Positions 3,753-60,554 of a DNA stretch of 64,000 nucleotides are shown here, one piece after another. The number at the start of each line of letters is the position of its first letter. Position 1 is the stretch's first letter. The notes under the pieces are model-generated. The model was not told the DNA's origin. It saw only the letters and a program-made list of their open reading frames with translations, and searched no databases. The stretch is from assembly GCA_964372935.1 (NCBI GenBank), contig CAYJRF010000003.1, forward strand, positions 3,903 to 67,902, written 5' to 3'. Position numbers and translations under genes: made by a program. This DNA comes from an uncultured Candidatus Saccharibacteria bacterium. GTDB taxonomy: Bacteria > Patescibacteriota > UBA1384 > 2-12-FULL-50-11 > DASWYB01.

Positions 3753-5801
3753 TTATTCCGGATGACTGGAACGCCAGAATCTTTCACACGCTTGCCGAAA
3801 TTCCGGCAAATCAATCAGTTCCCCCGCCACCTTTTGGGCAATTTCGACTTGACGCACATCCCGCAGGTCGGCAAACCGAAGTCGCGGCAAGCCAGACTGG
3901 GATTCGCCCGCCAGCTCCCCCGGCCCGCGCGTGTCAAGGTCCTGCTGGGCCAACGCAAAGCCGTCATCGGTGGCTTCCAGCAACTTGAGACGAGCGTGAT
4001 CTCTTTGACTGTCGACGGTGGGAAAGAGCAAACAATAACTCTGACAGTCGCTCCGCCCAACCCGCCCGCGCAATTGATGAAGCTGGGCCAAGCCGAAGCG
4101 TTCGGCATTTTCGACCACCATGATGGTCGCGCCGGGGACATCCACCCCAACTTCGACCACGGTGGTGCTCACCAAGATGTCAATTTCTCTTCGGCGGAAC
4201 GCATCCATGGTGGTTTTTTTTTCATTCGAAGCCATTTTACCGTGAAGCATTGCCACCCGACGGCGCGGGAAGACCGATTGGATAGTTTTATGCCAAGTGG
4301 TAACCGCCTTAGTTTCTTCTATCGTTTGAAACAGCGACCCAAAAACGATCCCTTCATCCAATTCCACCGGCTCGACTGCCGGACAAATAACATACACTTG
4401 TCTTCCGCGCGACACATGAGTATCGATAAAGGCGTAAGCCCGAGAGCGATTTTTTTCCGCCACAACCCGTGTAATTATTGGTTTACGACCGAGTGGCTTA
4501 GTGCGAATAACGGAAATATCCAAATTGCCGTAGAGCGCCAAGGCCAGCGTGCGGGGAATTGGAGTGGCGGTCATACTCAAAAGATGGACGGCGCCGCGCT
4601 GGCGCAGTCGCCCTCGTTGATTGACGCCGAAGCGGTGTTGCTCGTCTATAATCAGCAAGCCAAGCGGTGGGAGATCGAGGGAGTCGGCGAGTAGCGCGTG
4701 GGTGCCGATTATTAGGGCCATTGCCGCGAGCTGACCGGACGAGGCTTTTTTTATCCCGTGGTCGTTAATCACCCGCTGCGTCCGCGTCCACAAGCCAATC
4801 GGCCGATCTAAAATCGTCTTTCCAAGCAGTTTTGAAGCCGTGAGGAAATGCTGCCGCGCCAGAAGCTCGGTTGGCGCCAGCCAAACAACCGCCTTGCCAG
4901 CCGTCATGGTCTGAATGGCCGCCGCGAGAGCCACGACTGTCTTGCCGCTCCCGACATCGCCCTGAATCAAGCGATTCATCGGTTGGGGTCGGGCCAGATC
5001 GTGGTTAATCGCTTCAATCGTTCGCTCTTGATCGTCGGTTAAAATAAACGGCAGCGACGCGCGCCAAGACGCCAGGGCTGCGGGATTCGGCGGCAGGCGG
5101 TCTATCGTCGTTTTGTCCCACGTGCGACGATTAATCAGGGAAGGGGCCAAGAGGAGGAGGATTTCATCAAACCCCCATCGCCGCCGAGCCGTCTCAACCG
5201 CCGCAAGATTTTCGGGAAAGTGGAGATTATTCAGAGCTTGAGTAAGACTGCACAATTGGTGATCAACCAAAATATTCGGCGGCAGAAAGTCAGACATCTC
5301 GGCTATCAGCGGTTGAAGTTGGCCCATGAGAGCGCGGATTCGCCCGGTGGTTACGCCACCGATCGCCGGATAAACGGGCAGTATGGCCGGTTTGGCCAGT
5401 AGTGAAGGCGCCATCATGACCCGTTCGCCCGCGCCCAGTCGGCGGCAACGGCCGTAAAGCAACAGTGTCGCGCCGACATAAATTCGGTTGGCCAGAAATC
5501 GCGGATGGAACCACATGGCGCCGATAGTATCGGTCTCGTCGCCAATTGTCGCCCGCAAGTATGGCGTGCCGGAGCGCTGGCTTCGTCCGAGCTGAACTGT
5601 TAAGACTTTGACCCGGACCACGCCGATGACGTCCGGTCGCAACCGAGCCAACGGCACGACCGTGGTGGCGTCAAGCCAGCCGCGCGGCAAGAAGTAGCTC
5701 AAATCTTCCAGAGTGAAGACGAGGCGCGATTCAAAGACACGAGCCGTCTTCTCTCCCATGCCCCTAAGCACGCGAATGGAATCGGCCAGGCGCCACGTCA
5801 T
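3753..5801 (-). CDS. recG: ATP-dependent DNA helicase RecG
   Basis: 682 aa; wedge domain plus helicase motifs (GDVGSGKT, DEQHRFG, QLHQLRGRVGR). Confidence 0.9.
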   Translation of the reverse strand: MTWRLADSIRVLRGMGEKTARVFESRLVFTLEDLSYFLPRGWLDATTVVPLARLRPDVIGVVRVKVLTVQLGRSQRSGTPYLRATIGDETDTIGAMWFHPRFLANRIYVGATLLLYGRCRRLGAGERVMMAPSLLAKPAILPVYPAIGGVTTGRIRALMGQLQPLIAEMSDFLPPNILVDHQLCSLTQALNNLHFPENLAAVETARRRWGFDEILLLLAPSLINRRTWDKTTIDRLPPNPAALASWRASLPFILTDDQERTIEAINHDLARPQPMNRLIQGDVGSGKTVVALAAAIQTMTAGKAVVWLAPTELLARQHFLTASKLLGKTILDRPIGLWTRTQRVINDHGIKKASSGQLAAMALIIGTHALLADSLDLPPLGLLIIDEQHRFGVNQRGRLRQRGAVHLLSMTATPIPRTLALALYGNLDISVIRTKPLGRKPIITRVVAEKNRSRAYAFIDTHVSRGRQVYVICPAVEPVELDEGIVFGSLFQTIEETKAVTTWHKTIQSVFPRRRVAMLHGKMASNEKKTTMDAFRRREIDILVSTTVVEVGVDVPGATIMVVENAERFGLAQLHQLRGRVGRSDCQSYCLLFPTVDSQRDHARLKLLEATDDGFALAQQDLDTRGPGELAGESQSGLPRLRFADLRDVRQVEIAQKVAGELIDLPEFRQACERFWRSSHPE

Positions 5802-19616: not shown

Positions 19617-20732
19617 CTACTGTTCTCTACTATATTCTAGAGAGATAGCTCCTATGGGTGGGCTAAAGTCGTAGCCTACTACCATGCGTTTTTTCTCAGC
19701 TCCAGCCTTTACCATCATAGCCGTTAATTCTTCTTCAGTAAATCCGCTCTCATAAGAACGAATGCCAGATTCTGCTAACCAATGGCTCTCACGTACATAC
19801 GACTTGTAAAGATCGGAAATTTTTTGTCCACGTCTTGCTTTGAGCATGTGATTAATAAATACTGCCGCCATACCAACTTTACCCAATAAACGAAGACGCG
19901 ACCGGGCTCGTTTGAGTATTGTAGAATACCGTGTTGTATCAGCAACAATCAGTTTACCTCCCGGTCTCAACTTGCTCAATGCCGCAGCAAAAAACTCTAC
20001 GACCCGCTGATGAGAATGTTCATGTAGAGCCAATGTTGAAACTATCACATCGCACTCTTGTTCATCAATGGATTCTAAAATAATTCCGTCTCCTTGCACT
20101 AAAACTATTTTGTCTCTAACGCGGGAAAAGGATTTTTTGCCCAGAATCTCGATCATGTCTTTTGATAAGACGTGCGGCTCTTTTGCGATGTCAATAATCT
20201 TTATAATAAAATTATTTCCGATGAAATTCTGTAAACAATCGGCAATAAAATAACCTAAAACCCCAAAGCCACCAAACGGGTCACAAATGACAACTTTTCT
20301 TTGCTGACTCACCGCCTTTAAATGTCGAATTAGTCCTGGATCCAGAAACTTGGTGAGGATCTTATTGATGAATTCTCTATTAGGCCCAAGCTGTACCAAC
20401 GCCAGATCCCTCATAACACCCTGGCTAATAGACATAAGCCGTGAGGGTTCCAAAACAAGTGACCCTATGACAGCCGCCGTTGCTAAATCATCGTGTCGTA
20501 CAAACTGTTGAGCTATTTTTAGGAGTGGATGATGACTCTTGAGGAGAGCCGGATGTATGTAGCCCCCGTACCATCTACGTCTGACGAGAGCGACACGGAC
20601 TTCAGGATACTGTGTAAAAATGTTTTCATCAAGAACCACTACTTCCCCGCATCTATAAGGTTCCACCGGTCTGGGTCTTGCGTCGTCCCATAGCTCATCC
20701 TGCTTCAAACATAGCATCGGCCGAAAGACCAT
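19617..20732 (-). CDS. class I SAM-dependent methyltransferase with an N-terminal domain of unknown function of about 130 aa
   Basis: 371 aa; motif I VICDPFGGFGVLG, acidic post-I IIDIAKE, motif IV DVIVSTLALHE; AT-rich. Confidence 0.72.
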   Translation of the reverse strand: MVFRPMLCLKQDELWDDARPRPVEPYRCGEVVVLDENIFTQYPEVRVALVRRRWYGGYIHPALLKSHHPLLKIAQQFVRHDDLATAAVIGSLVLEPSRLMSISQGVMRDLALVQLGPNREFINKILTKFLDPGLIRHLKAVSQQRKVVICDPFGGFGVLGYFIADCLQNFIGNNFIIKIIDIAKEPHVLSKDMIEILGKKSFSRVRDKIVLVQGDGIILESIDEQECDVIVSTLALHEHSHQRVVEFFAAALSKLRPGGKLIVADTTRYSTILKRARSRLRLLGKVGMAAVFINHMLKARRGQKISDLYKSYVRESHWLAESGIRSYESGFTEEELTAMMVKAGAEKKRMVVGYDFSPPIGAISLEYSREQ

Positions 20733-21739
20733 TACACTATCCTTGGCGAACGTCGGCCAGAAATTTTGGTAAAATTCGGATTGAGAGGTCGGCCGAGACG
20801 GAAAAGGACTTGGGGTCGATACCTAGAGTCAATTTCTGCTCGGAGCCTAGGAGAGAGCGTTGGCACTTCAATTGGAGCAGCAGCGATACAGTGAGCAAAA
20901 TTATGCCTAGCCCCATCTAGAAGAACTCGCTCCATGAGACGGCCACTCCCTAACCAAGCTTCCGGGCCGTCGTACTCACTGCCAATGATTACGTGAAGCG
21001 GTGAACTAGAAAACGTTCCACGCCAATAGAGTGCTTCGGCTTCGGGATTGATGATTTCACCTAGCTTCCGATACGAAGAACGAGAGTTCGGCAACTTCTC
21101 AACTAACGCCCCTAGTGACATGCCAGTTTCAGGAGTATCAATCGGATCGATTAATTCGAATAATTCCCTGACCATCGGCTTCATTGACAATGCCAACTTG
21201 GTACCTTCGCCGACAAGTTCAGCTATCCTTAACCGAGCCTGGCTGTCAACGATTGAAAAAAGTTTTATTTCGGGTTCAGAGAATCTTTCTGCCTCATCAA
21301 GGAATGTGGAGCTCAGATCAGAAGAATAGTTACCTCTGTTGGTATGGCGTTTAGTCAAACCATCAAACAATTCTTCGAAGGGAAGTCGAGCGTTTACTGG
21401 AATGAATTTTACCGACGCTACCTTAATAGCATGGACAGTTTGGGCCATAATCTCCACTTTTCCGTCAAAACCCCAATGAGCCGCGGCCACAACAAGATTC
21501 TCAATAAAGGCGCCTAGCCCAATAAATGTTTCGCGCAGGGTTGGATCGCCCACAGCGAGTGTGTGTTCCGGATCGCGATAGAGAAACAAAGATTCACCCT
21601 TCACCTCAACAAGCCACGGTTGGGTGTTATGAGCCGAGGGAGCGAGAATTGCGTATCTAAGCCAAAATTTAATTTTCTCACTTATGTCAGCCGATACAGG
21701 AAAGTCCCGTTCGTCAATTTGCCAAACGGAAGTACTCAT
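20732..21739 (-). CDS. nitroreductase-superfamily FMN oxidoreductase (Acg-family-like / SagB-like dehydrogenase)
   Basis: 335 aa; signature APSAHNTQPW near the N-terminus; length fits double half-domain Acg-type proteins; shares a stop/start nucleotide with the methyltransferase gene. Confidence 0.7.
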   Translation of the reverse strand: MSTSVWQIDERDFPVSADISEKIKFWLRYAILAPSAHNTQPWLVEVKGESLFLYRDPEHTLAVGDPTLRETFIGLGAFIENLVVAAAHWGFDGKVEIMAQTVHAIKVASVKFIPVNARLPFEELFDGLTKRHTNRGNYSSDLSSTFLDEAERFSEPEIKLFSIVDSQARLRIAELVGEGTKLALSMKPMVRELFELIDPIDTPETGMSLGALVEKLPNSRSSYRKLGEIINPEAEALYWRGTFSSSPLHVIIGSEYDGPEAWLGSGRLMERVLLDGARHNFAHCIAAAPIEVPTLSPRLRAEIDSRYRPQVLFRLGRPLNPNFTKISGRRSPRIV

Positions 21740-21741
21740 AG

Positions 21742-22971
21742 TTAGTCCTTTCCAAAAAGGAGATCTGTACTCTCGATAAATTCCGCTTTTTGCCGAGATC
21801 GCGCTAATTTGGCCGCCTTGGTCATATACTCTGGATCAAATTCAGCATCAAAATGAATTTCGTAACGACCGGACGGCATAGATAGCCCCGCCAAAATACG
21901 TCTGGCGACGTAGGCAACCGTAGCCCCCGAAAGAGTAGCCGCCGTGCCCAACTGCGGCCAAGTAGGCAACTTTGTCCCAACTTGGGTCAAGGAAAGTTGC
22001 ATTCTGGGCACGACATCGGGGCCAACAATACGATTAGCTAATTTAACTTTCTCGGCCATTGTTGGGTTAGACGGCAAGTTGCGAAGACGATCTTCCGATA
22101 CTCGGCCATGAAACAGGAGCCGTTCGGGTTCAAGGTCAAATCGTTCAACGTCAATAATAGTGTTGTCGCCATTATCGGTTGCCATCACAACCGGGATTCT
22201 CAAAGCTCGAGCCATGAAACGCGACTCAATCTTTAATTTAATGTTGTCCATCTCTTCGATGAAGAGTTGGAGTTTTTCCCCCTTGCCTTCGCCCGAGACA
22301 AAAAATTTTTTCATGTTCGCCTCGGTCAATCCCTCGCTAAAAACCTCGAGTTCTTGGTAAGGATTCATTTCATAAACTCGACGCGCCGTCATGATTGATT
22401 TTTTTTGTGCTAAATCTGTCACTGAAGCCGAAAGTCGATTAAGGTTGGTAATCGATAACGTGTCCAAATCAGCGATACGCATTTTGCCGCCACCACCCGT
22501 GAGGATAAGCCCATTAACCACTGACGAACCAACACTTAATCCAGCTATGCCGATGCGGGACTGATAAAATTTTTCTTGCTCTTCCAATGTGATGAGAAAT
22601 TTATTGCGAGCTGTCCGTAGCTTAAAATAATCGCTTGGATCCGGGAGGTGGACCAGAGTCCAACGCCAAGGGAAATACACCCACAATCCAACCGTATCGA
22701 ACTCTCGTTCGCCAATGTAACGGTTCTTATAACGCGTTAAAGTCTGTTTGTACTCGGGACTGCCGGGAGCAACAAAAGGAAAGTCAATTTTAAACAAATC
22801 CTCGATAGCCTCGGCAAGGGAGTCAACGATTTCGTAAACTTCGTGATTTTTTCGCAGCTCAGAGACCCGCCTTCGGTCGGGTTCTTGGTCTAGGTCAAGG
22901 ATTTCCGGTTGCCATTTAGTTTCGCTTAACTTTGGATCAACACCGCTGTCCATGTTTAGCGTCTTATCCAT
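21742..22971 (-). CDS. E1-like ThiF/MoeB-family adenylyltransferase with an N-terminal extension of about 115 aa
   Basis: 409 aa; core from about residue 115: ...EEQEKFYQSRIGIAGLSVGSSVVNGLILTGGGGKMRIADLDTLSITNLNRL... and ...VMATDNGDNT...; extension of unknown fold. Confidence 0.72.
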   Translation of the reverse strand: MDKTLNMDSGVDPKLSETKWQPEILDLDQEPDRRRVSELRKNHEVYEIVDSLAEAIEDLFKIDFPFVAPGSPEYKQTLTRYKNRYIGEREFDTVGLWVYFPWRWTLVHLPDPSDYFKLRTARNKFLITLEEQEKFYQSRIGIAGLSVGSSVVNGLILTGGGGKMRIADLDTLSITNLNRLSASVTDLAQKKSIMTARRVYEMNPYQELEVFSEGLTEANMKKFFVSGEGKGEKLQLFIEEMDNIKLKIESRFMARALRIPVVMATDNGDNTIIDVERFDLEPERLLFHGRVSEDRLRNLPSNPTMAEKVKLANRIVGPDVVPRMQLSLTQVGTKLPTWPQLGTAATLSGATVAYVARRILAGLSMPSGRYEIHFDAEFDPEYMTKAAKLARSRQKAEFIESTDLLFGKD

Positions 22972-24455
22972 TTGTGTTTAATTTTAATTTCAAAATCCTC
23001 ATTACCAAACTCCATAAAGTGAATTATCGGATCCGCTCTTTCCTTAATTTCTTGGTATAGCCGATTATATTCGCTATTCTGGTCTTTTAAGTTACTAATA
23101 ATCGACTTTAGAATTCGATTTTTTATGCCCGCCAATGGAGAAACGTCTTTTTTTAACTCAATATACAGATGCAAGCTTTGCTCTTGAGTATGTTCGTCGT
23201 AGAGCGTCTTAACGATAAATTTTCCGGTGACAAAAGCGTCTGTCTTTGACTTTTCTATGCCTCTTTTGATGTTTTCGGGAAAAATATCCAAAGCGTAGAA
23301 AGTTGTTGAGACATCCATCCGATAGTACAGAGCCAAATGAGGCTGCTGGGCATAAACGAGCAGTGGCTTAGGTAATCGGCCACGCCAAGGAGAGATTAAA
23401 TCATTAAGTTCAACTGGGTTAATGACTCTGCCTCGATCTAAAATTTGATACCGGATAAGAGGCAGGGAATTATTAGCCGTAAAAATTAGGTCCTCACCGG
23501 CTTGCTCAAAATAGCGTAGCTCGGGGCGATAATGAACGAACGTCGGCAAAACTGTAGTGCCGGGGAAAAGGCTATAGAAAAGTTTCCGGTCGCGGTCCGC
23601 GATTCGACGCAACAGAATGGAAAGTGGATTTTCATGGCCAAGCAAACCAGCGTCTGCCGTGCCATAGATGCTATACAACGTTTTTTCTGGATGTCTACCT
23701 TTAATGTGTTTGATAACATAGTCACGCCAGGCCTCCGAAATAGATTCCCCAGCTACAACTATCTTAAGGTTTAGTAAATCGAAGCGAACCCGTTCTTCGA
23801 CCCCACTATCAATAACGTCCTTAACGAAGGGTGGATAGCCCATGAGTACAATCTGATCAAAGAACGGAGCAAGTACCTTAAAGATGTTGACAATCGCCGC
23901 TTTATCAATGCCTGGCGTAATCGCAACCAAACGATGTCCCTGATCGGCTAGTCCTTGTATCGCGCCGAGGGTGTAGGTTCCACCAATCCAAGTCCCCATG
24001 GCGAAAGCGATAATCACCAAGGTTTCTCTATCTTTGGTGGCGAAGCCCTGTAAAAAAATGTCCTCGTGAAGTTTTATTGACTCTGCCAGGCTTTGATTGC
24101 CACGAGGCCACAAATGCGATTGCCCGCTCGAACCAGAACTCATAGAAACAATGCGGACGCTTTCGGTACATCCGTCCCACAACATATCATCAAGAGGATA
24201 TTGTTTTAAATAATTTTCTTTCGTTACTGCTGGTAATAATCGGAAGTCTTCTGGGCTCTTAATATTTTCTGAGTTAACGCGATGCCGTTTAAGAAAATCT
24301 TTATAGGCGGGGACACGTTGAGCGGCTTCTTGAAAAGTTTTTAGGGCGTTATTGAACCCAGGCAAATCAACTGACTTCCTAGCTTCGAGCTTATTTGATT
24401 CCCTAGATTTAATCATTTTTGAACCTAAAATGAGGCGTGAAACCCCCAACAACAT
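22956..24455 (-). CDS. adenylate-forming enzyme of the PaaK / F390-synthetase / CapK family
   Basis: 499 aa; AMP-binding-like SSGSSGQSH and C-terminal ...GEDLIFTANNSLPLIRYQILDRGRV... matching the PaaK-family C-terminus; an internal Met giving a start at 24416 is equally plausible. Confidence 0.68.
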   Translation of the reverse strand: MLLGVSRLILGSKMIKSRESNKLEARKSVDLPGFNNALKTFQEAAQRVPAYKDFLKRHRVNSENIKSPEDFRLLPAVTKENYLKQYPLDDMLWDGCTESVRIVSMSSGSSGQSHLWPRGNQSLAESIKLHEDIFLQGFATKDRETLVIIAFAMGTWIGGTYTLGAIQGLADQGHRLVAITPGIDKAAIVNIFKVLAPFFDQIVLMGYPPFVKDVIDSGVEERVRFDLLNLKIVVAGESISEAWRDYVIKHIKGRHPEKTLYSIYGTADAGLLGHENPLSILLRRIADRDRKLFYSLFPGTTVLPTFVHYRPELRYFEQAGEDLIFTANNSLPLIRYQILDRGRVINPVELNDLISPWRGRLPKPLLVYAQQPHLALYYRMDVSTTFYALDIFPENIKRGIEKSKTDAFVTGKFIVKTLYDEHTQEQSLHLYIELKKDVSPLAGIKNRILKSIISNLKDQNSEYNRLYQEIKERADPIIHFMEFGNEDFEIKIKHKWIRR

Positions 24456-32497: not shown

Positions 32498-32574
<77 letters not shown>

Positions 32575-32712
32575 AACCGTTGTTGAGCGGTTTTTTGATG
32601 CCCAAAATTATCGCGCCGATTCGCCAAATCAAACACTTTGGGCTAAAATAACGGGTGAAAGTTGATGGCGCGATTGTTACGAATTTAAGCAAACGTCGGA
32701 GATAAATAACGT

Positions 32713-32787
32713 GGCTGCGTAGCTCAGCGGTAGAGCAGCGGACTCATAAGCCGTCGGTCGCAGGTTCAAATCCTGCCGCAGCCACCA
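32713..32787 (+). tRNA. tRNA with CAU anticodon (elongator Met or lysidine-type Ile2; cannot tell from sequence)
   Basis: Acceptor ggctgcg/cgcagcc + A + CCA; anticodon loop ctcataa; T-arm gcaggttcaaatcctgc. Confidence 0.78.
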
Positions 32788-32918
32788 CACAGAACTTAAC
32801 GTCTTTTTCAAAGCCAGAAGGTACTACGCGCGAAGCGCGTGGTGGTTTTGACTTAAATCATGCGCTTGGACAATCGCCCCGCCTCCGCTTTGGTGCAGTT
32901 CGTTTGAAAAAAATTCAA

Positions 32919-33920
32919 CTATTGTTTGTTTTTTAAATTTTCTCCGCTTGCTTCGGCGTCCACTTCGTAATTTGTATTTTGCTGTTCAAAAAAATTTACC
33001 AGTTCAAACACATCAGTGGCGGCACCCATCCATTTCGCTGGGTTGGTTACATTATAGTGTTTTGGCAATCCAAGTTCTCCTAGTCGGCGATCAGCGACAT
33101 ACTGTACGTATTGGTTTACATAATCCACGTTGAGGCCGAGTATTCCTGTCGGAAAAAGATCTTTGTTATAAGCCACTTCTTTATCGACACCCTCAATAAC
33201 AATAGCGCCTATCTCATTGGCAAAATCTTTGGTAAGAAGTTCCGAATTTTCTTCCAACGCCGTATGAATAAGATGGATGCCAAATTTAAGGTGCAAACTC
33301 TCGTCTCGCAGCACCCAATTTATCATCGAGCCGAAGTTGCGCAACTGGTTTCTTTGCCTGAACGATAGGGCGACCATAAAGCCACTGTAGAACCATAAAC
33401 CCTCCATAACAATATTTGTCGCGACAAGATTACGGATGAAATCTTTTTTCCCCTCAACTGATTCAATATCCAAGGCCTTATCAGTCATGCGCTTTAAATA
33501 CTTCACGACATAATCCTCTTTCGCACTCATTGACGGAGTTTCTAAATGCAAATTGAATATTTTATTCCGATCAAATGAAAATGTTTGCAGGACATATTCA
33601 AATGCGACACAGTGATTTGCCTCTTCAAACATCTGTTTCGCAAGGTAGAGATGACATTCAGGAGATTTGAGATACGGGTATATGCCAAGAGCGATTGATC
33701 GGTTGACAATCAGCTCAGCCGGATTAAAAAAAGCCATGAGAAACTTGACCGCATGGCGTTCGTCCTCGGTCATATTTTTCCAGTCCTCAAGGTCTTCCTT
33801 TAGAGCTATCTCGTGCGGAAACCAAGTGTTGCGCACGGCTTGATTATAAAGATCGTACGCCCAAGCGTAGTGTATTGGGTGTAAGTTCATGTCTTCCGGT
33901 GAGGCTTTTCCGAGGATCAT
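32919..33920 (-). CDS. nrdB: ribonucleoside-diphosphate reductase beta subunit (class Ia R2)
   Basis: 333 aa; di-iron/tyrosyl radical motifs (EEANHCVAFEY, MEGLWFYSGF); AT-rich gene. Confidence 0.9.
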   Translation of the reverse strand: MILGKASPEDMNLHPIHYAWAYDLYNQAVRNTWFPHEIALKEDLEDWKNMTEDERHAVKFLMAFFNPAELIVNRSIALGIYPYLKSPECHLYLAKQMFEEANHCVAFEYVLQTFSFDRNKIFNLHLETPSMSAKEDYVVKYLKRMTDKALDIESVEGKKDFIRNLVATNIVMEGLWFYSGFMVALSFRQRNQLRNFGSMINWVLRDESLHLKFGIHLIHTALEENSELLTKDFANEIGAIVIEGVDKEVAYNKDLFPTGILGLNVDYVNQYVQYVADRRLGELGLPKHYNVTNPAKWMGAATDVFELVNFFEQQNTNYEVDAEASGENLKNKQ

Positions 33921-33955
33921 AGTTTTTTGAATTATTTATTTGATAATTACTGGTA

Positions 33956-36418
33956 TCACTGGCAACTGTCGCATGCTAATCTTTCTTGCGGATCAATTGG
34001 ACAAACTTTTTCGATAGGAACTTGCAGTGTAACTTCCTCTGTTTGCTCGAATGCTTTTGCGAATCCGACCTTGCCCAGTTTCTCTGATTTGTTGACCGCA
34101 ACTGTACTCTGCTCAGCGGTGTGCCGGGGCTTCATGTGGAGATAGTATGTTGTTTTGACACCTTTTCTCCATGTCGAAGCATAAATATCCATTGCTTCGT
34201 CCACGTCTCTTGTTGCAAGATACATATTTCTTGAAAGAGCTTGATCAACCCACTTTTGGGCTCGCGCCGCAACTTCAACGTATGCAAGTGGCGGAATCGT
34301 AAAGGATGTTTTATACACGTCTCGGATATGTTGAGGTATATCAGAGATCGATGAGATATCTCCTTGAAGTTCAATAATCTTGTCTCGGACTCGTTCCCAC
34401 AAGTTGAGATTTTTGAGTTCGGTAACAAGATTGTGGTTAATATCAAGGTACTTACCTGAAATCTTGTTGCGTGAGAATACTTGGGCGAATCTCGGATCAA
34501 TTCCCGGTGTCGTGCCAGCAACCAGTCCAATGTTTGCGTTCGGTGCAACAGCAAGGAGAGTGGCGTTTCTCATTCCTTTTTTTACTTTTGCGCGCAGAGC
34601 ATCCCAGCCAAGCCCTTTGTGCTTACTTTTCTTATCAAGATCAAGCGTCATACCCCTGTCTTTTTCAAGCTCTTCAATCGTATCAATAGGCACTTTGCCC
34701 TTAGACCATCCCGAACCCTTGAAATGCTTGTAACTTCTGCGTTCCGTTGCTAGATTAGCGCTTTCATCAATTGCGATGAAACTTACGAATTCAAAAATTC
34801 CATCGGCAAAATCATTCGCGTGAGGACTGTCGTAAGGAATACCAAGCTGTTCAATCGTATCGGAAAAACCCATTACACCGAGACCAATAGCCCTGTTTTC
34901 TTTGTCTGACTTCACCGCCTCGGGGACAGGCAGTTCATTGATGTCAATAAGATTGTCGAGCTGGCGCACCGCGTAGCGCACGCTTTTTTCAAGTTTCTGC
35001 CAATCTACCTGCTTTTTTTTGAGGTGCGCGGCAAGGTTGATTGACGCGAGATTACATACGGCAATATTGTCCTTGTCTTGTGGTAAACATATTTCGGTGC
35101 AAAGATTCGACATGTGGATTGTGCCAGTGTTGCTATGAAGGGTACGCAGATTGATCGGGTCTTTCCACGTAAGCCATGGATGGGACGTTGTTTGGAGCGA
35201 AACGAGAATCTGTCTATATTGTTCTCTCGCCGGGACTTTATTGAATACTCTTATTTTTCCGGTCTCGGCCTTATCAATATATTCGGCATATCTTTTTGAA
35301 AATACTTTGCCGTAGAGTTCGTTAAGGTCTGGCGTTTCTTTTGGATCGAACATATACCAATCACCGCCATTTTCTACTCGCTTCATAAATTCGTCCGATA
35401 AAAATACGGCGGTGTTTGCTGTTCTCATGCGAAGGTAGTCATCGCCCGCGTTGTGTTTCCAATCAAGAAATTCCGGAAAGTCGATGTGCCAATTTTCCAT
35501 GTAGAAGCAGAGTGCGCCCTTCTTCTTCCCGCCCCGTTGAATGGCGCGAATGGCGGTATCAATAATTTTGGCAAAAGGAGTCGGCCCGCTTGATGTCGTG
35601 TTATCTGAAGAGAGAGGCGAGCCAGTAGCGCGCAGTTTGGTGATGGACGCCCCAATACCGCCGGATGCTTTGGAAAGTTTCATGACATCCGTAATTGATT
35701 TTGCGATATGATTTATATCATCGTGAATCTCAAGGAGAAAACAGTTAGAAAGAGCGGGTCGAGGTGTTCCCGCATGAATATTGGTTGACCCGCCGGCGAT
35801 GTATTCATGGCGCGACATTTTGTCGTAAAAACGGATTGCCCATTCCGTTGGATCTTTCTCATTGTATGAAAGCCCCATTGCAACGCGCATAAAAAAATAT
35901 TGAGGCACTTCAGCAGGGTTTTGGTTTTTATCCTTGATAGTGTAGCGATTAAGGAGAGTTGAAAGACCCGCGTAAACAAACAGTTCGTCCCGATTAATAT
36001 CAAGCGCGCCCGCAAGGCAAGAGAGATCAAACACTTTCTCCATACGAGCGTCGAGAATACCGTCTTTCACTCCATTTTTAACATAACGAACAAATCCTTC
36101 GTGATGAAGTTCTATTAATTCATTGGCGTTTTCATAATCGCCAACGACTCGTTTATAGATAGTTTTGAGTAAAATTCGTGTTGCGATTTTGTCGTATTCA
36201 GGATCATCTTTTATATTCTGTACTGCCGCATTTATTGTCGCTAAATCGAGCTCTTCCGTAGTGATACCATCGTACAAAATTATCTGCGTATCCGTTCCCA
36301 CTTGAGTGACTTTACTTATCGGATCGCTTAATCCCATGCTTGCCCGCTCAATGGATCGGTTGATTCGATCTGCGTTAAAAGGTTCTTTGGAGCCGTCTCG
36401 TTTTGTTATGTTGATCAT
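33956..36418 (-). CDS. nrdA: ribonucleoside-diphosphate reductase alpha subunit (class I, with ATP-cone)
   Basis: ORF is open to 36463 (TTG), but the Met at 36418 (MINITKRDGSKEPF, ATP-cone start) follows a GAGG SD; catalytic region includes NLCTEI and C-terminal CxxC; AT-rich. Confidence 0.9.
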   Translation of the reverse strand: MINITKRDGSKEPFNADRINRSIERASMGLSDPISKVTQVGTDTQIILYDGITTEELDLATINAAVQNIKDDPEYDKIATRILLKTIYKRVVGDYENANELIELHHEGFVRYVKNGVKDGILDARMEKVFDLSCLAGALDINRDELFVYAGLSTLLNRYTIKDKNQNPAEVPQYFFMRVAMGLSYNEKDPTEWAIRFYDKMSRHEYIAGGSTNIHAGTPRPALSNCFLLEIHDDINHIAKSITDVMKLSKASGGIGASITKLRATGSPLSSDNTTSSGPTPFAKIIDTAIRAIQRGGKKKGALCFYMENWHIDFPEFLDWKHNAGDDYLRMRTANTAVFLSDEFMKRVENGGDWYMFDPKETPDLNELYGKVFSKRYAEYIDKAETGKIRVFNKVPAREQYRQILVSLQTTSHPWLTWKDPINLRTLHSNTGTIHMSNLCTEICLPQDKDNIAVCNLASINLAAHLKKKQVDWQKLEKSVRYAVRQLDNLIDINELPVPEAVKSDKENRAIGLGVMGFSDTIEQLGIPYDSPHANDFADGIFEFVSFIAIDESANLATERRSYKHFKGSGWSKGKVPIDTIEELEKDRGMTLDLDKKSKHKGLGWDALRAKVKKGMRNATLLAVAPNANIGLVAGTTPGIDPRFAQVFSRNKISGKYLDINHNLVTELKNLNLWERVRDKIIELQGDISSISDIPQHIRDVYKTSFTIPPLAYVEVAARAQKWVDQALSRNMYLATRDVDEAMDIYASTWRKGVKTTYYLHMKPRHTAEQSTVAVNKSEKLGKVGFAKAFEQTEEVTLQVPIEKVCPIDPQERLACDSCQ

Positions 36419-36442
36419 GTTGTGCCTCACTTGATTAATAAA

Positions 36443-36466
36443 AACACTTGCACTACGCGCCAAGTG
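36443..36466. promoter_or_regulatory. palindrome ACACTTG-n10-CAAGTGT in the nrdA 5' leader, just upstream of the SD
   Basis: Read directly; ACAC...GTGT ends recall NrdR-box half-sites but spacing differs from the 16-bp consensus. Confidence 0.3.
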
Positions 36467-39839: not shown

Positions 39840-39915
39840 TGGTGGGCGCACATGGATTCGAACCATGGACCGGGCGGATATAAGCCGCCTGCTCTGCCAT
39901 CTGAGCTATGCGCCC
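39840..39915 (-). tRNA. tRNA-Ile with UAU anticodon (tentative)
   Basis: Reverse complement gggcgcatagctcagatggcagagcaggcggcttatatccgcccggtccatggttcgaatccatgtgcgcccacca folds canonically; anticodon stem ggcgg/ccgcc, loop cttatat (U33, UAU, A37); body resembles Ile2-type tRNAs. Confidence 0.72.
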
Positions 39916-57492: not shown

Positions 57493-58746
57493 TTGTTTGG
57501 TTATGGTAAGGGCGTGCCGAATTTACCCCACCCGCGCGATAACCAGTGGTTATTTCTGGATATGAACGCCTTTTTCGCGTCGTGCGAACAGCATCGGCGG
57601 CCGGAACTGCGCGGTCGGCCGGTAGCCGTTACACCCTCGCCGGTGCCGAGCGGCTGCGTTATTGCCGCCTCGTACGAAGCCAAGCGACGCGGCGTTACCA
57701 CCGGCTGTCGCGTCGGCGAAGCGCGGGCGCGCATCCCCGACATTACTATCGTTGAAGCGGCGCCGCGTTACTACGTTGCCATCCACCGCCAAATCGCCAC
57801 CTTTTTGACCCAAGAAATCACCCCCGCGCCCCAGCCGTGGAGCATTGACGAATTCGCCCTGCCGCTCGACAAAAACGAGCAGTGGACCCCCCGCGCCCAT
57901 CAATTAGCCCGACGGATTAAAGCTCGCCTAGAAACGATATTTAGCCCGTATCTGCGCTGTTCTATCGGCATTGGCCCGAATCAATTTTTGGCCAAACTCG
58001 GCACCGAGATAGACAAACCTAACGGTCTGGTGATTATTCAACTTCACACCTTGGAAGCGGCCTACCGCCGATTGAGCCTGCGCGACATTCCCGGCATCAA
58101 CTGGGGAATGAGCCACCGCCTCCACGGATTGGGCATCGGAACGCCGGTGGATTTTTGGCGCGCGCCACCGGAATTCTTGCGTCACGCTCTTGGCCGCTTG
58201 GGCGACGCTTGGTGGCACAATCTTCACGGCTACGTCGTCGAGCGGACGACCACCGCGCCCAAAAGCTTGAGCCACTCTCATGTTTTGGGGCCGCCGTGGC
58301 GCGCCAAGCAGCCGGCGCGCAGTATTCTGTACAAGCTGTTTTGGAAAATCTTGGAACGATTGCGGGCCGAACGGTTGGCCACGACCCAAATTATTGTCAC
58401 GATCGCCGATTATGCCCAAGGCTGGGAGACAATCGTTCACACCCGACCAACCCAAGGCCAAGCAAGACTTTTTCGGGTCATCGGCGCGCGTTACGACGCC
58501 CAGTACCCAACAGCCGGACGGCCAATCAAAATAACCGTTGTCGCGCGGCCGCTCGGACCGGCCTCGTTTAAGGTTCTGCCGCTCTTTCGCGACGACAATG
58601 CCAAATACGGCGATCTCCTGAACGCGGCCGACAAAGTTAACCAACGCTTCGGTCGCTGGACAATCCAACCCGCCTCGCTCCTCTCGGCCGGACCGGCGGC
58701 GCCCAATCGTATTCCTTTCGGCGCGCCCGGTTCCGAGATGGACTAG
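57493..58746 (+). CDS. dinB: Y-family DNA polymerase (DinB / Pol IV-like)
   Basis: 417 aa; WLFLDMNAFFASCEQ catalytic start, SIGIGPNQFLAKL (SIGIA-like) motif. Confidence 0.82.
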   Translation: MFGYGKGVPNLPHPRDNQWLFLDMNAFFASCEQHRRPELRGRPVAVTPSPVPSGCVIAASYEAKRRGVTTGCRVGEARARIPDITIVEAAPRYYVAIHRQIATFLTQEITPAPQPWSIDEFALPLDKNEQWTPRAHQLARRIKARLETIFSPYLRCSIGIGPNQFLAKLGTEIDKPNGLVIIQLHTLEAAYRRLSLRDIPGINWGMSHRLHGLGIGTPVDFWRAPPEFLRHALGRLGDAWWHNLHGYVVERTTTAPKSLSHSHVLGPPWRAKQPARSILYKLFWKILERLRAERLATTQIIVTIADYAQGWETIVHTRPTQGQARLFRVIGARYDAQYPTAGRPIKITVVARPLGPASFKVLPLFRDDNAKYGDLLNAADKVNQRFGRWTIQPASLLSAGPAAPNRIPFGAPGSEMD

Positions 58747-58951
58747 CGACCATTAGGCAGATAACGATCTCTTCATAACACGCTGCGAGTTCTCTGTTAC
58801 TTCGTATCGTGCGCATATCATTTTAATCACCAGAAGCTATAGCAGGAGCTATGCATTACAAATCCCAGGTGTGACATAAAACGGTAGTGACAGTTATTTG
58901 GTATGCAATGTCAAAATACAGACAGTCATAACTACCAAAATCTCTCCATAA

Positions 58952-59407
58952 ATGGCTAACCAATCCGACCTACGACAACTCTCCCGTGCAAGAGTTAAAA
59001 CGGCAAACACTCTTATCAAGGCTAGCGATTGGGATGCGGCTGCATATATGATGGGGTATGTTCTGGAACTGGCGCTTAAGGCGGCTTCTTGTAAAGCACT
59101 TAAGCTCAAAAATTACCCGGTAAATACACGACTCCAAAAAATCGATGACTGTTTTCAATCTCATAGGTTCGATCAGCTTATTGTCGTTAGTGGATTATCG
59201 GACCTATTTAGCCTCGACGGGCCAGCTGAATCATTTGGAAACTGGTCGTTATTCGTTCAGGAATATCCTGGAAATTGGCCGGAAATACGTTACGACCCCA
59301 ATATAATTATTAGATTTAACGAGAGTAAGGTTCATAGTCTATTCCAGTATCTTTATGACGACGACAACAGTATCATCAAAACGATAGCAGGAAAACGACG
59401 ATGGTAG
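58952..59407 (+). CDS. HEPN-like domain protein (putative RNase/toxin), tentative
   Basis: 151 aa; N-terminal helical pair ...AAAYMMGYVLELALKAASCKAL... and a C-proximal R-x6-H (RFNESKVH), consistent with but not proof of HEPN; AT-rich. Confidence 0.45.
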   Translation: MANQSDLRQLSRARVKTANTLIKASDWDAAAYMMGYVLELALKAASCKALKLKNYPVNTRLQKIDDCFQSHRFDQLIVVSGLSDLFSLDGPAESFGNWSLFVQEYPGNWPEIRYDPNIIIRFNESKVHSLFQYLYDDDNSIIKTIAGKRRW

Positions 59408-59790
59408 ATACAGAATTTATTCGAAAATTCAAAGAGATATTAGTTGACCTTGAAAAGAGAGGTACGGTTTTCCTGTTAGCTATTCTAAAAATGGATGATG
59501 CGACCGACAAGTGGACGGTTGTGCTTAGCGCAGAATGGCTAAAAACGACGACTCAATTGGAAGCTTTTTCAATAATTAGATCAAAATTGTTAGATAAGCT
59601 TAATGAGCAGGAAAGATCGACTATCGCAAGAATCGGTATTTTTACTGAAGATGACCATTTAGTAGAAATGATGGTAGACAAGCATAGAGCGGATGAATAC
59701 ATTGACAATGTAGAGAAAATAAATGGGAACCTCGTCCACGAGGGCTATGTGTTTGCGGCACAAAATCCCATTCGCTTGCGCTCTAGTTAG
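59401..59790 (+). CDS. hypothetical protein (129 aa), translationally coupled partner of the HEPN-like gene
   Basis: Start ATG overlaps the upstream stop by 7 nt (ATGGTAG); no recognisable motif. Confidence 0.4.
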   Translation: MVDTEFIRKFKEILVDLEKRGTVFLLAILKMDDATDKWTVVLSAEWLKTTTQLEAFSIIRSKLLDKLNEQERSTIARIGIFTEDDHLVEMMVDKHRADEYIDNVEKINGNLVHEGYVFAAQNPIRLRSS

Positions 59791-59975
59791 TAATCATTTT
59801 ACGTTTGCGGCACTTGTTCCCGGACTGTTTTATGGTTTAAAAATGAGACCCTGGAATAGTTTCTCTGTCTCTGAACGTGTCAGTCAACCTTACCTTGCCG
59901 TATGGCGTGTTATGAGGGTGCGGTTGAGCTCGGGCAAAACTTGACACTAACTGCCTCCCTGACGACAATAGGCCC

Positions 59976-60554
59976 ATGGATCGCTCAACCGCGTTGGCCG
60001 AAGTGGCTCAAGATTTGCGGGCCGTGTCGCTCTATCAAGACGCCAATTTTGTCCCGGGCGAGGGCAGCCCAAACGCCCAGGTGATGTTTGTGGGCGAGGC
60101 GCCGGGCCAGAAAGAAGACGCTTCGGGACAGCCGTTCGTGGGGGCCGCGGGGCGATTTTTAACTGAAATGCTCGAACTAATCAGCCTGAAACGAGGCGAC
60201 GTTTTTATCACCAACATCGTTAAGCAACGCCCGCCCGACAATCGCGATCCCTTGCCCGCCGAAATCGCCGCCCATTGGCCGTTTCTCGAGCGGCAAATCG
60301 CCATAATTGAGCCGCGGATTATCGTGATGCTCGGCCGACACTCGATGGCGCGGCTTCTTCCGGGCGTTGGGCCGATATCGCAAGTTCACGGCCGGCCGTA
60401 TCGTCGCCAAGACGGACGGGTTTACCTCCCCCTGTACCATCCGGCCGTCGCCCTGTATAACGGCAGTATGCGCCACGTCCTGATGGCCGATTTTCAAAAA
60501 ATTCCGCCAATTCTAAAAAAAATTAGCCCGGCCGATTCGACAGGTCTCGCTTAG
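59976..60554 (+). CDS. udg: uracil-DNA glycosylase, family 4
   Basis: 192 aa; motif GEGSPNAQVMFVGEAPGQKEDASGQPFVGAAG; TTGACA-17-GACAAT promoter just upstream. Confidence 0.85.
   Translation: MDRSTALAEVAQDLRAVSLYQDANFVPGEGSPNAQVMFVGEAPGQKEDASGQPFVGAAGRFLTEMLELISLKRGDVFITNIVKQRPPDNRDPLPAEIAAHWPFLERQIAIIEPRIIVMLGRHSMARLLPGVGPISQVHGRPYRRQDGRVYLPLYHPAVALYNGSMRHVLMADFQKIPPILKKISPADSTGLA

Follow-up and report, generated by a model that had tools for sequence, protein, structure and literature searches.

What is an islet of AT-rich DNA, with two small overlapping genes, doing between the dinB and udg genes of an uncultured Candidatus Saccharibacteria bacterium? The islet lies within a 64,000-nucleotide (nt) stretch of contig CAYJRF010000003.1 (assembly GCA_964372935.1), which was analyzed at its full length and is referred to here as the window. 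The first gene of the pair (gene 1) encodes a protein with the fold of HEPN domains, and the second (gene 2) encodes a protein of an undescribed family. RNases of the HEPN type count among the commonest effectors of toxin and defence systems, and the small partner best known for them is the MNT adenylyltransferase. Bacteria of the Patescibacteria/candidate phyla radiation (CPR) have tiny genomes and few recognised defence or toxin-antitoxin systems, and experimental access to them is hard. We consider it rather probable that the pair is a mobile toxin-antitoxin or abortive-infection-type module, in which an HEPN toxin is matched with a protein antitoxin that is not of the MNT type.

A gene pair joined by a seven-nucleotide overlap

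Gene 1 (58952-59407, + strand) encodes a single-domain HEPN-fold protein of 151 amino acids (aa), a putative RNase toxin, and gene 2 (59401-59790, + strand) encodes an acidic α/β protein of 129 aa (isoelectric point (pI) 5.2), a putative antitoxin or immunity partner. Together the two span a module of about 840 bp. An earlier note on this DNA had reported two + strand open reading frames (ORFs) that overlap by the 7 nt ATGGTAG, and both ORFs and overlap were present as described, with Trp151 and the stop codon of gene 1 lying over Met1 and Val2 of gene 2 (59401-59407, + strand).

The pairing of the two genes was surveyed by hidden Markov model searches of all ORFs of 17 loci from genomes and 80 from metagenomes. 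A closer subset of gene 2 homologs (A4) was used for this locus scan, as the broad alignment (A3) was too diverse. By this approach, a gene 1 homolog was found directly upstream, and on the same strand, of 92 gene 2 homologs. Two more pairs had been hidden by a mis-called start, such that gene 2 directly followed a gene 1 homolog in 94 of 95 loci, and for two further gene 2 homologs the sequence upstream was too short for pairing to be judged. The order of the genes was constant, with the HEPN gene upstream in all of the approximately 94 pairs. The overlap was exactly 7 nt in 78 of 92 pairs and, when only the 67 non-identical pairs were considered, the junction read ATGGTAG in 61 and ATGGTAA in 5, with the gene 1 product ending in [KR]-W and the gene 2 product starting with M-V-[ED]. 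A Shine-Dalgarno-like element was detected 5-18 nt before the gene 2 start in 34% of the pairs compared to 11% of control windows. As read from the sequence, the 7-nt overlap is a signature of translational coupling.

The two genes were also found to evolve together. Divergence of the gene 1 and gene 2 proteins was correlated (r = 0.63, a value reached in 0 of 999 Mantel permutations), and median dN/dS ratios of approximately 0.12 for gene 1 and 0.14 for gene 2 revealed purifying selection on both. Intact homologs in approximately 95 loci, low dN/dS ratios and confident AlphaFold2 models reveal both ORFs to be real genes, and the two form an obligate unit. Their products differ in charge, gene 1 proteins being mostly basic (median pI 8.55) and gene 2 proteins acidic in 93% of the pairs (median pI 5.28). 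The pair has the general properties of a toxin-antitoxin system, i.e., two small co-directional and coupled genes that are inherited together, patchily distributed and placed in variable context. The sole locus with a gene 2 homolog and no intact gene 1 (L029, positions 1-1036) had a 5'-truncated gene 1, of which the C-terminal '...MRY...KKW' part was left right after a transposase-like ORF, and an intact gene 2. This is an order of decay that a toxin-antitoxin pair can tolerate.

An HEPN-fold protein and its partner

The AlphaFold2 model of gene 1 (pLDDT 92.7) displayed the four-helix up-down core of the all-α HEPN fold. At the sequence level, the window protein scored 16.6 bits against PF05168 over residues 8-46, which is under the 22-bit gathering cutoff; 25 of 28 relatives matched this family at E<=0.1, and three exceeded 22 bits (23.0-26.0). 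The similarity of the gene 1 family to PF05168 is restricted to the first two helices (model positions 4-46 of 117). In a 28-sequence alignment of the family, the polar residues E39, K43, C47, H71, S80, S99 and Y114 were invariant, R113 was conserved in at least 90% of the sequences, and the C-terminal W151 was also among the conserved residues. E39 and K43 provide the Ex3[KR] motif that a survey of the HEPN superfamily found in many families (PMC3710099). By contrast, the canonical Rx4-6H motif was not detected, as no His was found 4-6 residues after R113 in the same alignment. Gene 1 had been described in the earlier note as HEPN-like with a C-proximal R-x6-H motif. The first part of this claim was upheld by the fold and by the weak yet consistent Pfam similarity, whereas the motif, which corresponds to R121 and H128, was rejected as a chance spacing, neither residue being conserved among the 28 aligned members.

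Comparable residue patterns have been described. In AF0298-type HEPN-T and AbiV proteins, the His of Rx4-6H is gone and the basic residue is kept, and a further His, strongly conserved and located before the motif, may form an alternative active site (PMC3710099). Similarly, the PF05168-class ('Class II') HEPN toxins have no RX4H, keep a conserved Tyr and were toxic when tested (PMC7641770). In the gene 1 family, H71 is invariant and N-terminal to R113 and, as judged by residue order and fold, the two may belong to one site. The conserved residue set of gene 1 is in line with these descriptions, and gene 1 is therefore filed as a divergent HEPN-T-like domain, with E39/K43, H71 and R113/Y114 as its conserved candidate catalytic residues.

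Gene 2 had no match in Pfam, NCBIfam, PADLOC or PHROGs. Only 7 relatives were retrieved by word-indexed search, and an exhaustive profile search detected 512 representative clusters at E<=1e-3, of which 108 reached E<=1e-10. When 105-131 family members were aligned, W38, R77 and N108-G109 were found to be near-invariant, and E71 and an acidic residue (D/E) at position 32 were common. The GS...DxD signature of MNT proteins (hG[GS], DxD), which had already been reported missing from gene 2, was absent from the window protein and from the 105-131 family members; likewise, 0 of 105 members matched PF01909 and no other Pfam family was matched consistently. The AlphaFold2 model of gene 2 (pLDDT 90.2) has the topology α1-β1-β2-α2-β3-α3 followed by a small β-meander, with its β1-β2 hairpin occupying the place of the β1-helix-β2 unit of the nucleotidyltransferase (NTase) core. 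Since this hairpin replaces the NTase core order and the catalytic motifs are absent, gene 2 is predicted not to be an MNT protein. Foldseek searches with the model returned nothing significant (best E 0.018, TM-score 0.44 or less), the weak similarities being to MafI2, BolA and MNT-type folds, and no sequence-level link was found when the gene 1 and gene 2 family profiles were compared to solved structures. As modelled, gene 2 folds as a two-layer α/β sandwich of a generic kind, with no convincing relative among solved structures. The statement that gene 2 has no recognisable fold was thus too strong, in light of this confident α/β model and its weak similarity to the folds listed above.

Several relatives of gene 2 are enlarged. 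Long forms of 250-300 aa (P0129, P0135, P0155, P0157, P0171 and P0174) start with a gene 2 domain, continue with tandem NPxxNxxI repeats of 8 residues and end in a β-rich region, which carries W[IV]G[FY] motifs and has no Pfam match. The 7-nt overlap is kept between P0174, a form of 299 aa, and the 143-aa HEPN gene upstream of it. In P0146, the gene 2 domain is duplicated in tandem. A Rosetta-stone search found no HEPN domain in the gene 2 fusion proteins.

Origin and proposed working of the module

The composition of the islet differs from that of its surroundings. GC content of 200-nt windows was 0.325-0.465 at 58700-59899 compared to 0.55-0.675 on both sides, and that of the gene pair was 0.41 compared to 0.58-0.59 for its flanks. 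At 0.424, positions 59001-60000 were the joint lowest 1-kb bin of the window. The AT-rich islet that had been noticed inside a GC-rich DNA-repair neighbourhood, at roughly 58750-59830, was thus evident in both the 200-nt and the 1-kb profiles, with an extent of approximately 58750-59850. Among related loci, the pair was AT-richer than its flanks in 58 of 59, with a mean GC difference of 0.079, and the window pair is among those with the largest GC contrast to host.

The dinB-udg junction was compared to that of relatives. The closest DinB relatives of the host were approximately 60% identical and from Patescibacteria, and the order MutS ... DinB - slot - UDG and/or Mur ligase - holin-like gene was kept in these relatives. 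When loci L100, L101 and L102 were compared, the slot cargo included a β-propeller protein, an unrelated 317-aa ORF, DCD, NUDIX and NYN genes and a 163-aa ORF. Homologs of gene 1 and gene 2 were both absent from the loci of the syntenic relatives. The dinB-udg junction is a variable slot, and the pair is not universally conserved at this position. The suggestion that this is an acquired-looking accessory pair, and not a core one, was therefore borne out by the other cargo of the slot, by the variable context over approximately 95 loci and by the AT-richness of the pair.

Matches in genomes were nearly all from Patescibacteria/CPR metagenome-assembled genomes (MAGs), and included the Microgenomates, Berkelbacteria, Saccharibacteria, Roizmanbacteria, Levyibacteriota, Kaiserbacteria, Paceibacterota, Woesebacteria and Andersenbacteria. 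Outside of the CPR, an Acidoferrum MAG and a Pseudomonadales MAG gave one match each, and a distant relative came from a Bacteroidetes MAG. When the 248 flanking ORFs were clustered, 188 clusters resulted, 147 of which were singletons, and no conserved third gene was found among these ORFs. Among the few neighbours that recurred were a large serine recombinase (6 loci) and, in 4 loci each, an IS1595 transposase and a DNA methylase; DNA-repair and housekeeping neighbours, including UvrA, UvrB and ribosomal protein S9, were also seen.

Some individual loci may be described here. The Bacteroidetes MAG (L019, positions 3930-4660) carries a gene 1 homolog of 30% identity in which the Ex3K, His and Arg-Tyr residues are kept, and which overlaps the next ORF. 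This ORF encodes 107 aa, with a segment 'IWRVAVF' that resembles 'IARIGIF' of gene 2, and its comparison to the gene 2 profile by hhalign gave E 0.0056 at a probability of 6.5%. UvrA/UvrB genes adjoin the module in L011, L008, L035-L037, L051 and L090, one UvrB being interrupted by an intein; these neighbours may echo the MutS/DinB/UDG setting of the window, and coincidence is possible. In L036 (flanks of the pair at approximately 865-1212), a 25-nt exact direct repeat was found around the module, compared to only 11 nt in the relatives L035 and L037. In the window itself, a perfect 11-nt inverted repeat (TCATAACACGC at 58773-58783 and GCGTGTTATGA at 59905-59915) encloses the islet close to the composition boundaries. 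It is compatible with chance and was rejected as a terminal inverted repeat, as its length only equals the maximum of its own shuffles and such repeats did not recur in the other 66 loci. The longest repeats flanking the module in the 67 loci were likewise not above shuffles, with means of 8.25 compared to 8.22 for inverted and 8.94 compared to 8.26 for direct repeats.

Of the characterised systems, RnlA/RnlB and LsoA/LsoB (type II) resemble the module in gene order, as the HEPN toxin is encoded upstream of its antitoxin, and in that this antitoxin is a small α/β protein that is fully folded and of a non-MNT type. RnlB binds the HEPN dimer and blocks both ends of the substrate groove (PMC8266594). 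RnlA/RnlB is the closest analogue for the probable working of the module. The RnlA-type toxin differs in that it is multi-domain (TBP1-TBP2-HEPN) with a catalytic Rx4-6H, whereas gene 1 is a single 151-aa domain without the motif His, and no homology of gene 2 to RnlB or LsoB was found. MafI2, the immunity protein of Neisseria MafB2 (PDB 8hhj), offers a likeness in its charge-complementary occlusion (PMC9970974). By contrast, MafI2 and gene 2 are 3% identical and their Foldseek match is non-significant (E 0.044, TM-score 0.38-0.46), and the cognate toxin MafB2 has an RNase A fold and is secreted; homology of gene 2 to MafI2 cannot be claimed. The partner of AbiV is an RNA antitoxin (type III; bioRxiv 10.1101/2024.05.05.592566), whereas that of gene 1 is a protein under purifying selection; no Rfam or other structured RNA family was found in the islet, and the PADLOC model of AbiV misses gene 1.

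The systems with an MNT partner were also compared. Class II HEPN/MNT systems (PF05168 with PF01909, type VII) are likewise small overlapping two-gene operons, and gene 1 is similar to their toxins in its PF05168-like sequence, its lack of RX4H, its Tyr beside the Arg and its Ex3K motif. By contrast, gene 2 is without GSx10DxD and without PF01909 similarity, its core topology is another one, and the HEPN gene comes first in the module. With a partner that lacks MNT features and an HEPN-first gene order, AMPylation is therefore not expected. In HepT/MntA systems (Class I), the toxin carries RX4HXY (PMC7641770), which is not found in the gene 1 alignment, and the MNT antitoxin gene is upstream of the HEPN gene, whereas here the HEPN gene is upstream. 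AF0298-type HEPN-T proteins (PDB 2hsb) differ in being usually MNT-linked.

We infer the toxin/immunity function of the pair and propose the following mechanism. The gene 1 protein would dimerise and cut or bind RNA by use of a non-canonical site, in which the Ex3K pair (E39, K43), H71 and R113-Y114 would replace the classical Rx4-6H. Gene 2 would be translated by termination-reinitiation at the ATGGTAG junction, such that its synthesis would be tied to that of gene 1. The acidic, folded gene 2 product would then attach directly to the basic HEPN protein and occlude the groove by which the latter binds RNA. Neutralisation would be type II-style, similar to that of RnlA by RnlB and of MafB2 by MafI2, and not by enzymatic AMPylation as with MNT proteins. 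It is we who infer the RNase activity, the toxicity, the direct binding and the identity of gene 1 as the toxin in this scheme.

Several points weigh against a mobile toxin-antitoxin module. With respect to mobility, the GC content of the pair tracked that of the host (r = 0.82), and many copies are therefore long-resident and not recent arrivals. Terminal repeats or target-site duplications that would delimit a mobile unit were not found. Searches of 50,697 annotated phage records and of 72,556 plasmids by tblastn returned no relatives, nor did a search of IMG/VR viral contigs; a phage or plasmid origin was unsupported by these searches, the only PHROG match being a remote one to phrog_5737 (of unknown function, E 5e-9). 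With respect to function, gene 2 shows no DNA-binding domain by which it could autoregulate, the decay pattern of L029 is a single case, and the proposal that H71 and R113 correspond to the AF0298-type site is based on residue order and fold, Pfam covering just helices 1-2. PADLOC matched neither gene and, with canonical Rx4-6H absent, gene 1 could be non-catalytic. Non-catalytic HEPN domains do exist (PMC3710099). These last points, as well as the GC correlation and the presence of the module at times among DNA-repair and housekeeping genes (UvrA, UvrB, ribosomal protein S9), would suit a two-subunit complex of Patescibacteria for RNA binding, processing or regulation that has no part in conflict, with a non-catalytic HEPN domain as in MtlR or human sacsin, and that serves host physiology and spreads by ordinary horizontal transfer. 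We consider such a complex unlikely in view of the patchy distribution, the non-conserved context and the absence from syntenic relatives. The pair is, moreover, consistently AT-richer than its host and adjoined by recombinases or transposases in several loci, and polar residues of the kind usual in active sites (E, K, H, R, Y, S) have stayed invariant in it.

Two other explanations retain the idea of an HEPN protein with a partner and differ in what that partner would be. Gene 2 could descend from an MNT protein that has lost catalysis, the module then being a decayed or repurposed HEPN/MNT (type VII) system with neutralisation by binding only. We find this quite improbable, as none of the 105 members has a GS or DxD motif or touches PF01909, the predicted β1-β2 hairpin stands in place of the NTase-core β1-helix-β2, and the gene order is reversed relative to MNT-HEPN. 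The MNT-type similarity of the model is, in addition, equalled or exceeded in score by MafI2 and BolA-type folds, with all Foldseek matches non-significant (best E 0.018). The roles could also be reversed or different, with gene 2 or its fused long forms as effector or sensor and the HEPN protein as regulator or adaptor. Fusion of the gene 2 domain to repeats and β-rich C-terminal regions suggests a capacity for extra functional modules, and gene 2 keeps a few near-invariant polar residues (R77, N108, E71). Against this, gene 2 is acidic and without enzyme signature, it persists in L029 without an intact gene 1, as expected of an antitoxin, and in all of the characterised two-gene HEPN systems cited, it is the HEPN protein that is toxic. 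We thus regard a reversal of roles as highly improbable, and an HEPN toxin with a non-MNT protein antitoxin as the probable reading.

Surroundings of the module and wider meaning

The module is flanked by host genes that lie outside of it. To the left is a DinB/IMS-family translesion polymerase (57493-58746, + strand; Pfam IMS E 2e-35), with MutS further upstream, and to the right a UDG-superfamily glycosylase (59976-60554, + strand; Pfam UDG E 4e-35), with a Mur-ligase gene downstream. GC content falls directly after the dinB stop codon, into an AT-rich non-coding leader of 205 nt (58747-58951, + strand) that is presumed to be the promoter region; no match to a sigma-70-type consensus was found on the + strand of this leader by promoter scan. 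In the non-coding spacer downstream of gene 2 (59791-59975, + strand), GC content is back to the host level at approximately 59850-59900, and a promoter-like site for udg was found at 59941-59969 by promoter scan. Matches in promoter and terminator scans of the islet were no more numerous than in shuffles. No Rfam match was detected in the islet at E<=1, and an RNA antitoxin or other RNA element is unsupported there.

Other features were observed elsewhere in the window. A low-GC stretch (0.42-0.45) at 32498-36463 encodes the large and small subunits of a class I ribonucleotide reductase on the minus strand. It comes directly after a pair of tRNA-Met(CAT) genes (32498-32574 and 32713-32787), and could be a further island of acquired DNA. 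Of the four genes of a low-GC (0.43-0.48) minus-strand operon at 19617-24455, one (21742-22971) encodes a ThiF/E1-like protein and the other three encode products without Pfam match. Weak PADLOC matches were to the E1-E2 (E 2e-7) and mad2 (E 9e-11) models, and the operon may be a defence operon of the ubiquitin-like-conjugation type. A tRNA-Ile with anticodon TAT is encoded at 39840-39915 (minus strand). Such a tRNA is uncommon in bacteria, most of which read AUA with a lysidine-modified CAT tRNA.

No published description of the gene pair was found in the searchable literature, and curated family models are lacking for both proteins. HEPN toxins with protein antitoxins are a known concept; what is new is the family of the partner, the strict conservation of the overlap architecture and a distribution centred on the Patescibacteria. 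As a tentative possibility that we would not yet favor, the gene 2 domain may be an unrecognised and widespread class of HEPN-binding proteins (approximately 500 clusters at 50% identity) that replaces MNT in a Patescibacteria-centred lineage. The long forms would double as sensors in such a new family of abortive-infection or defence systems, and the non-canonical His/Arg/Tyr site of the HEPN protein would be freed when the partner is titrated by a signal of phage or stress. The module extends known biology and overturns nothing, and two new family models for annotation pipelines would result from it. With an uncharacterised protein family tied to a minimal HEPN protein by a 7-nt overlap, a new neutralisation partner would be added to the HEPN repertoire.
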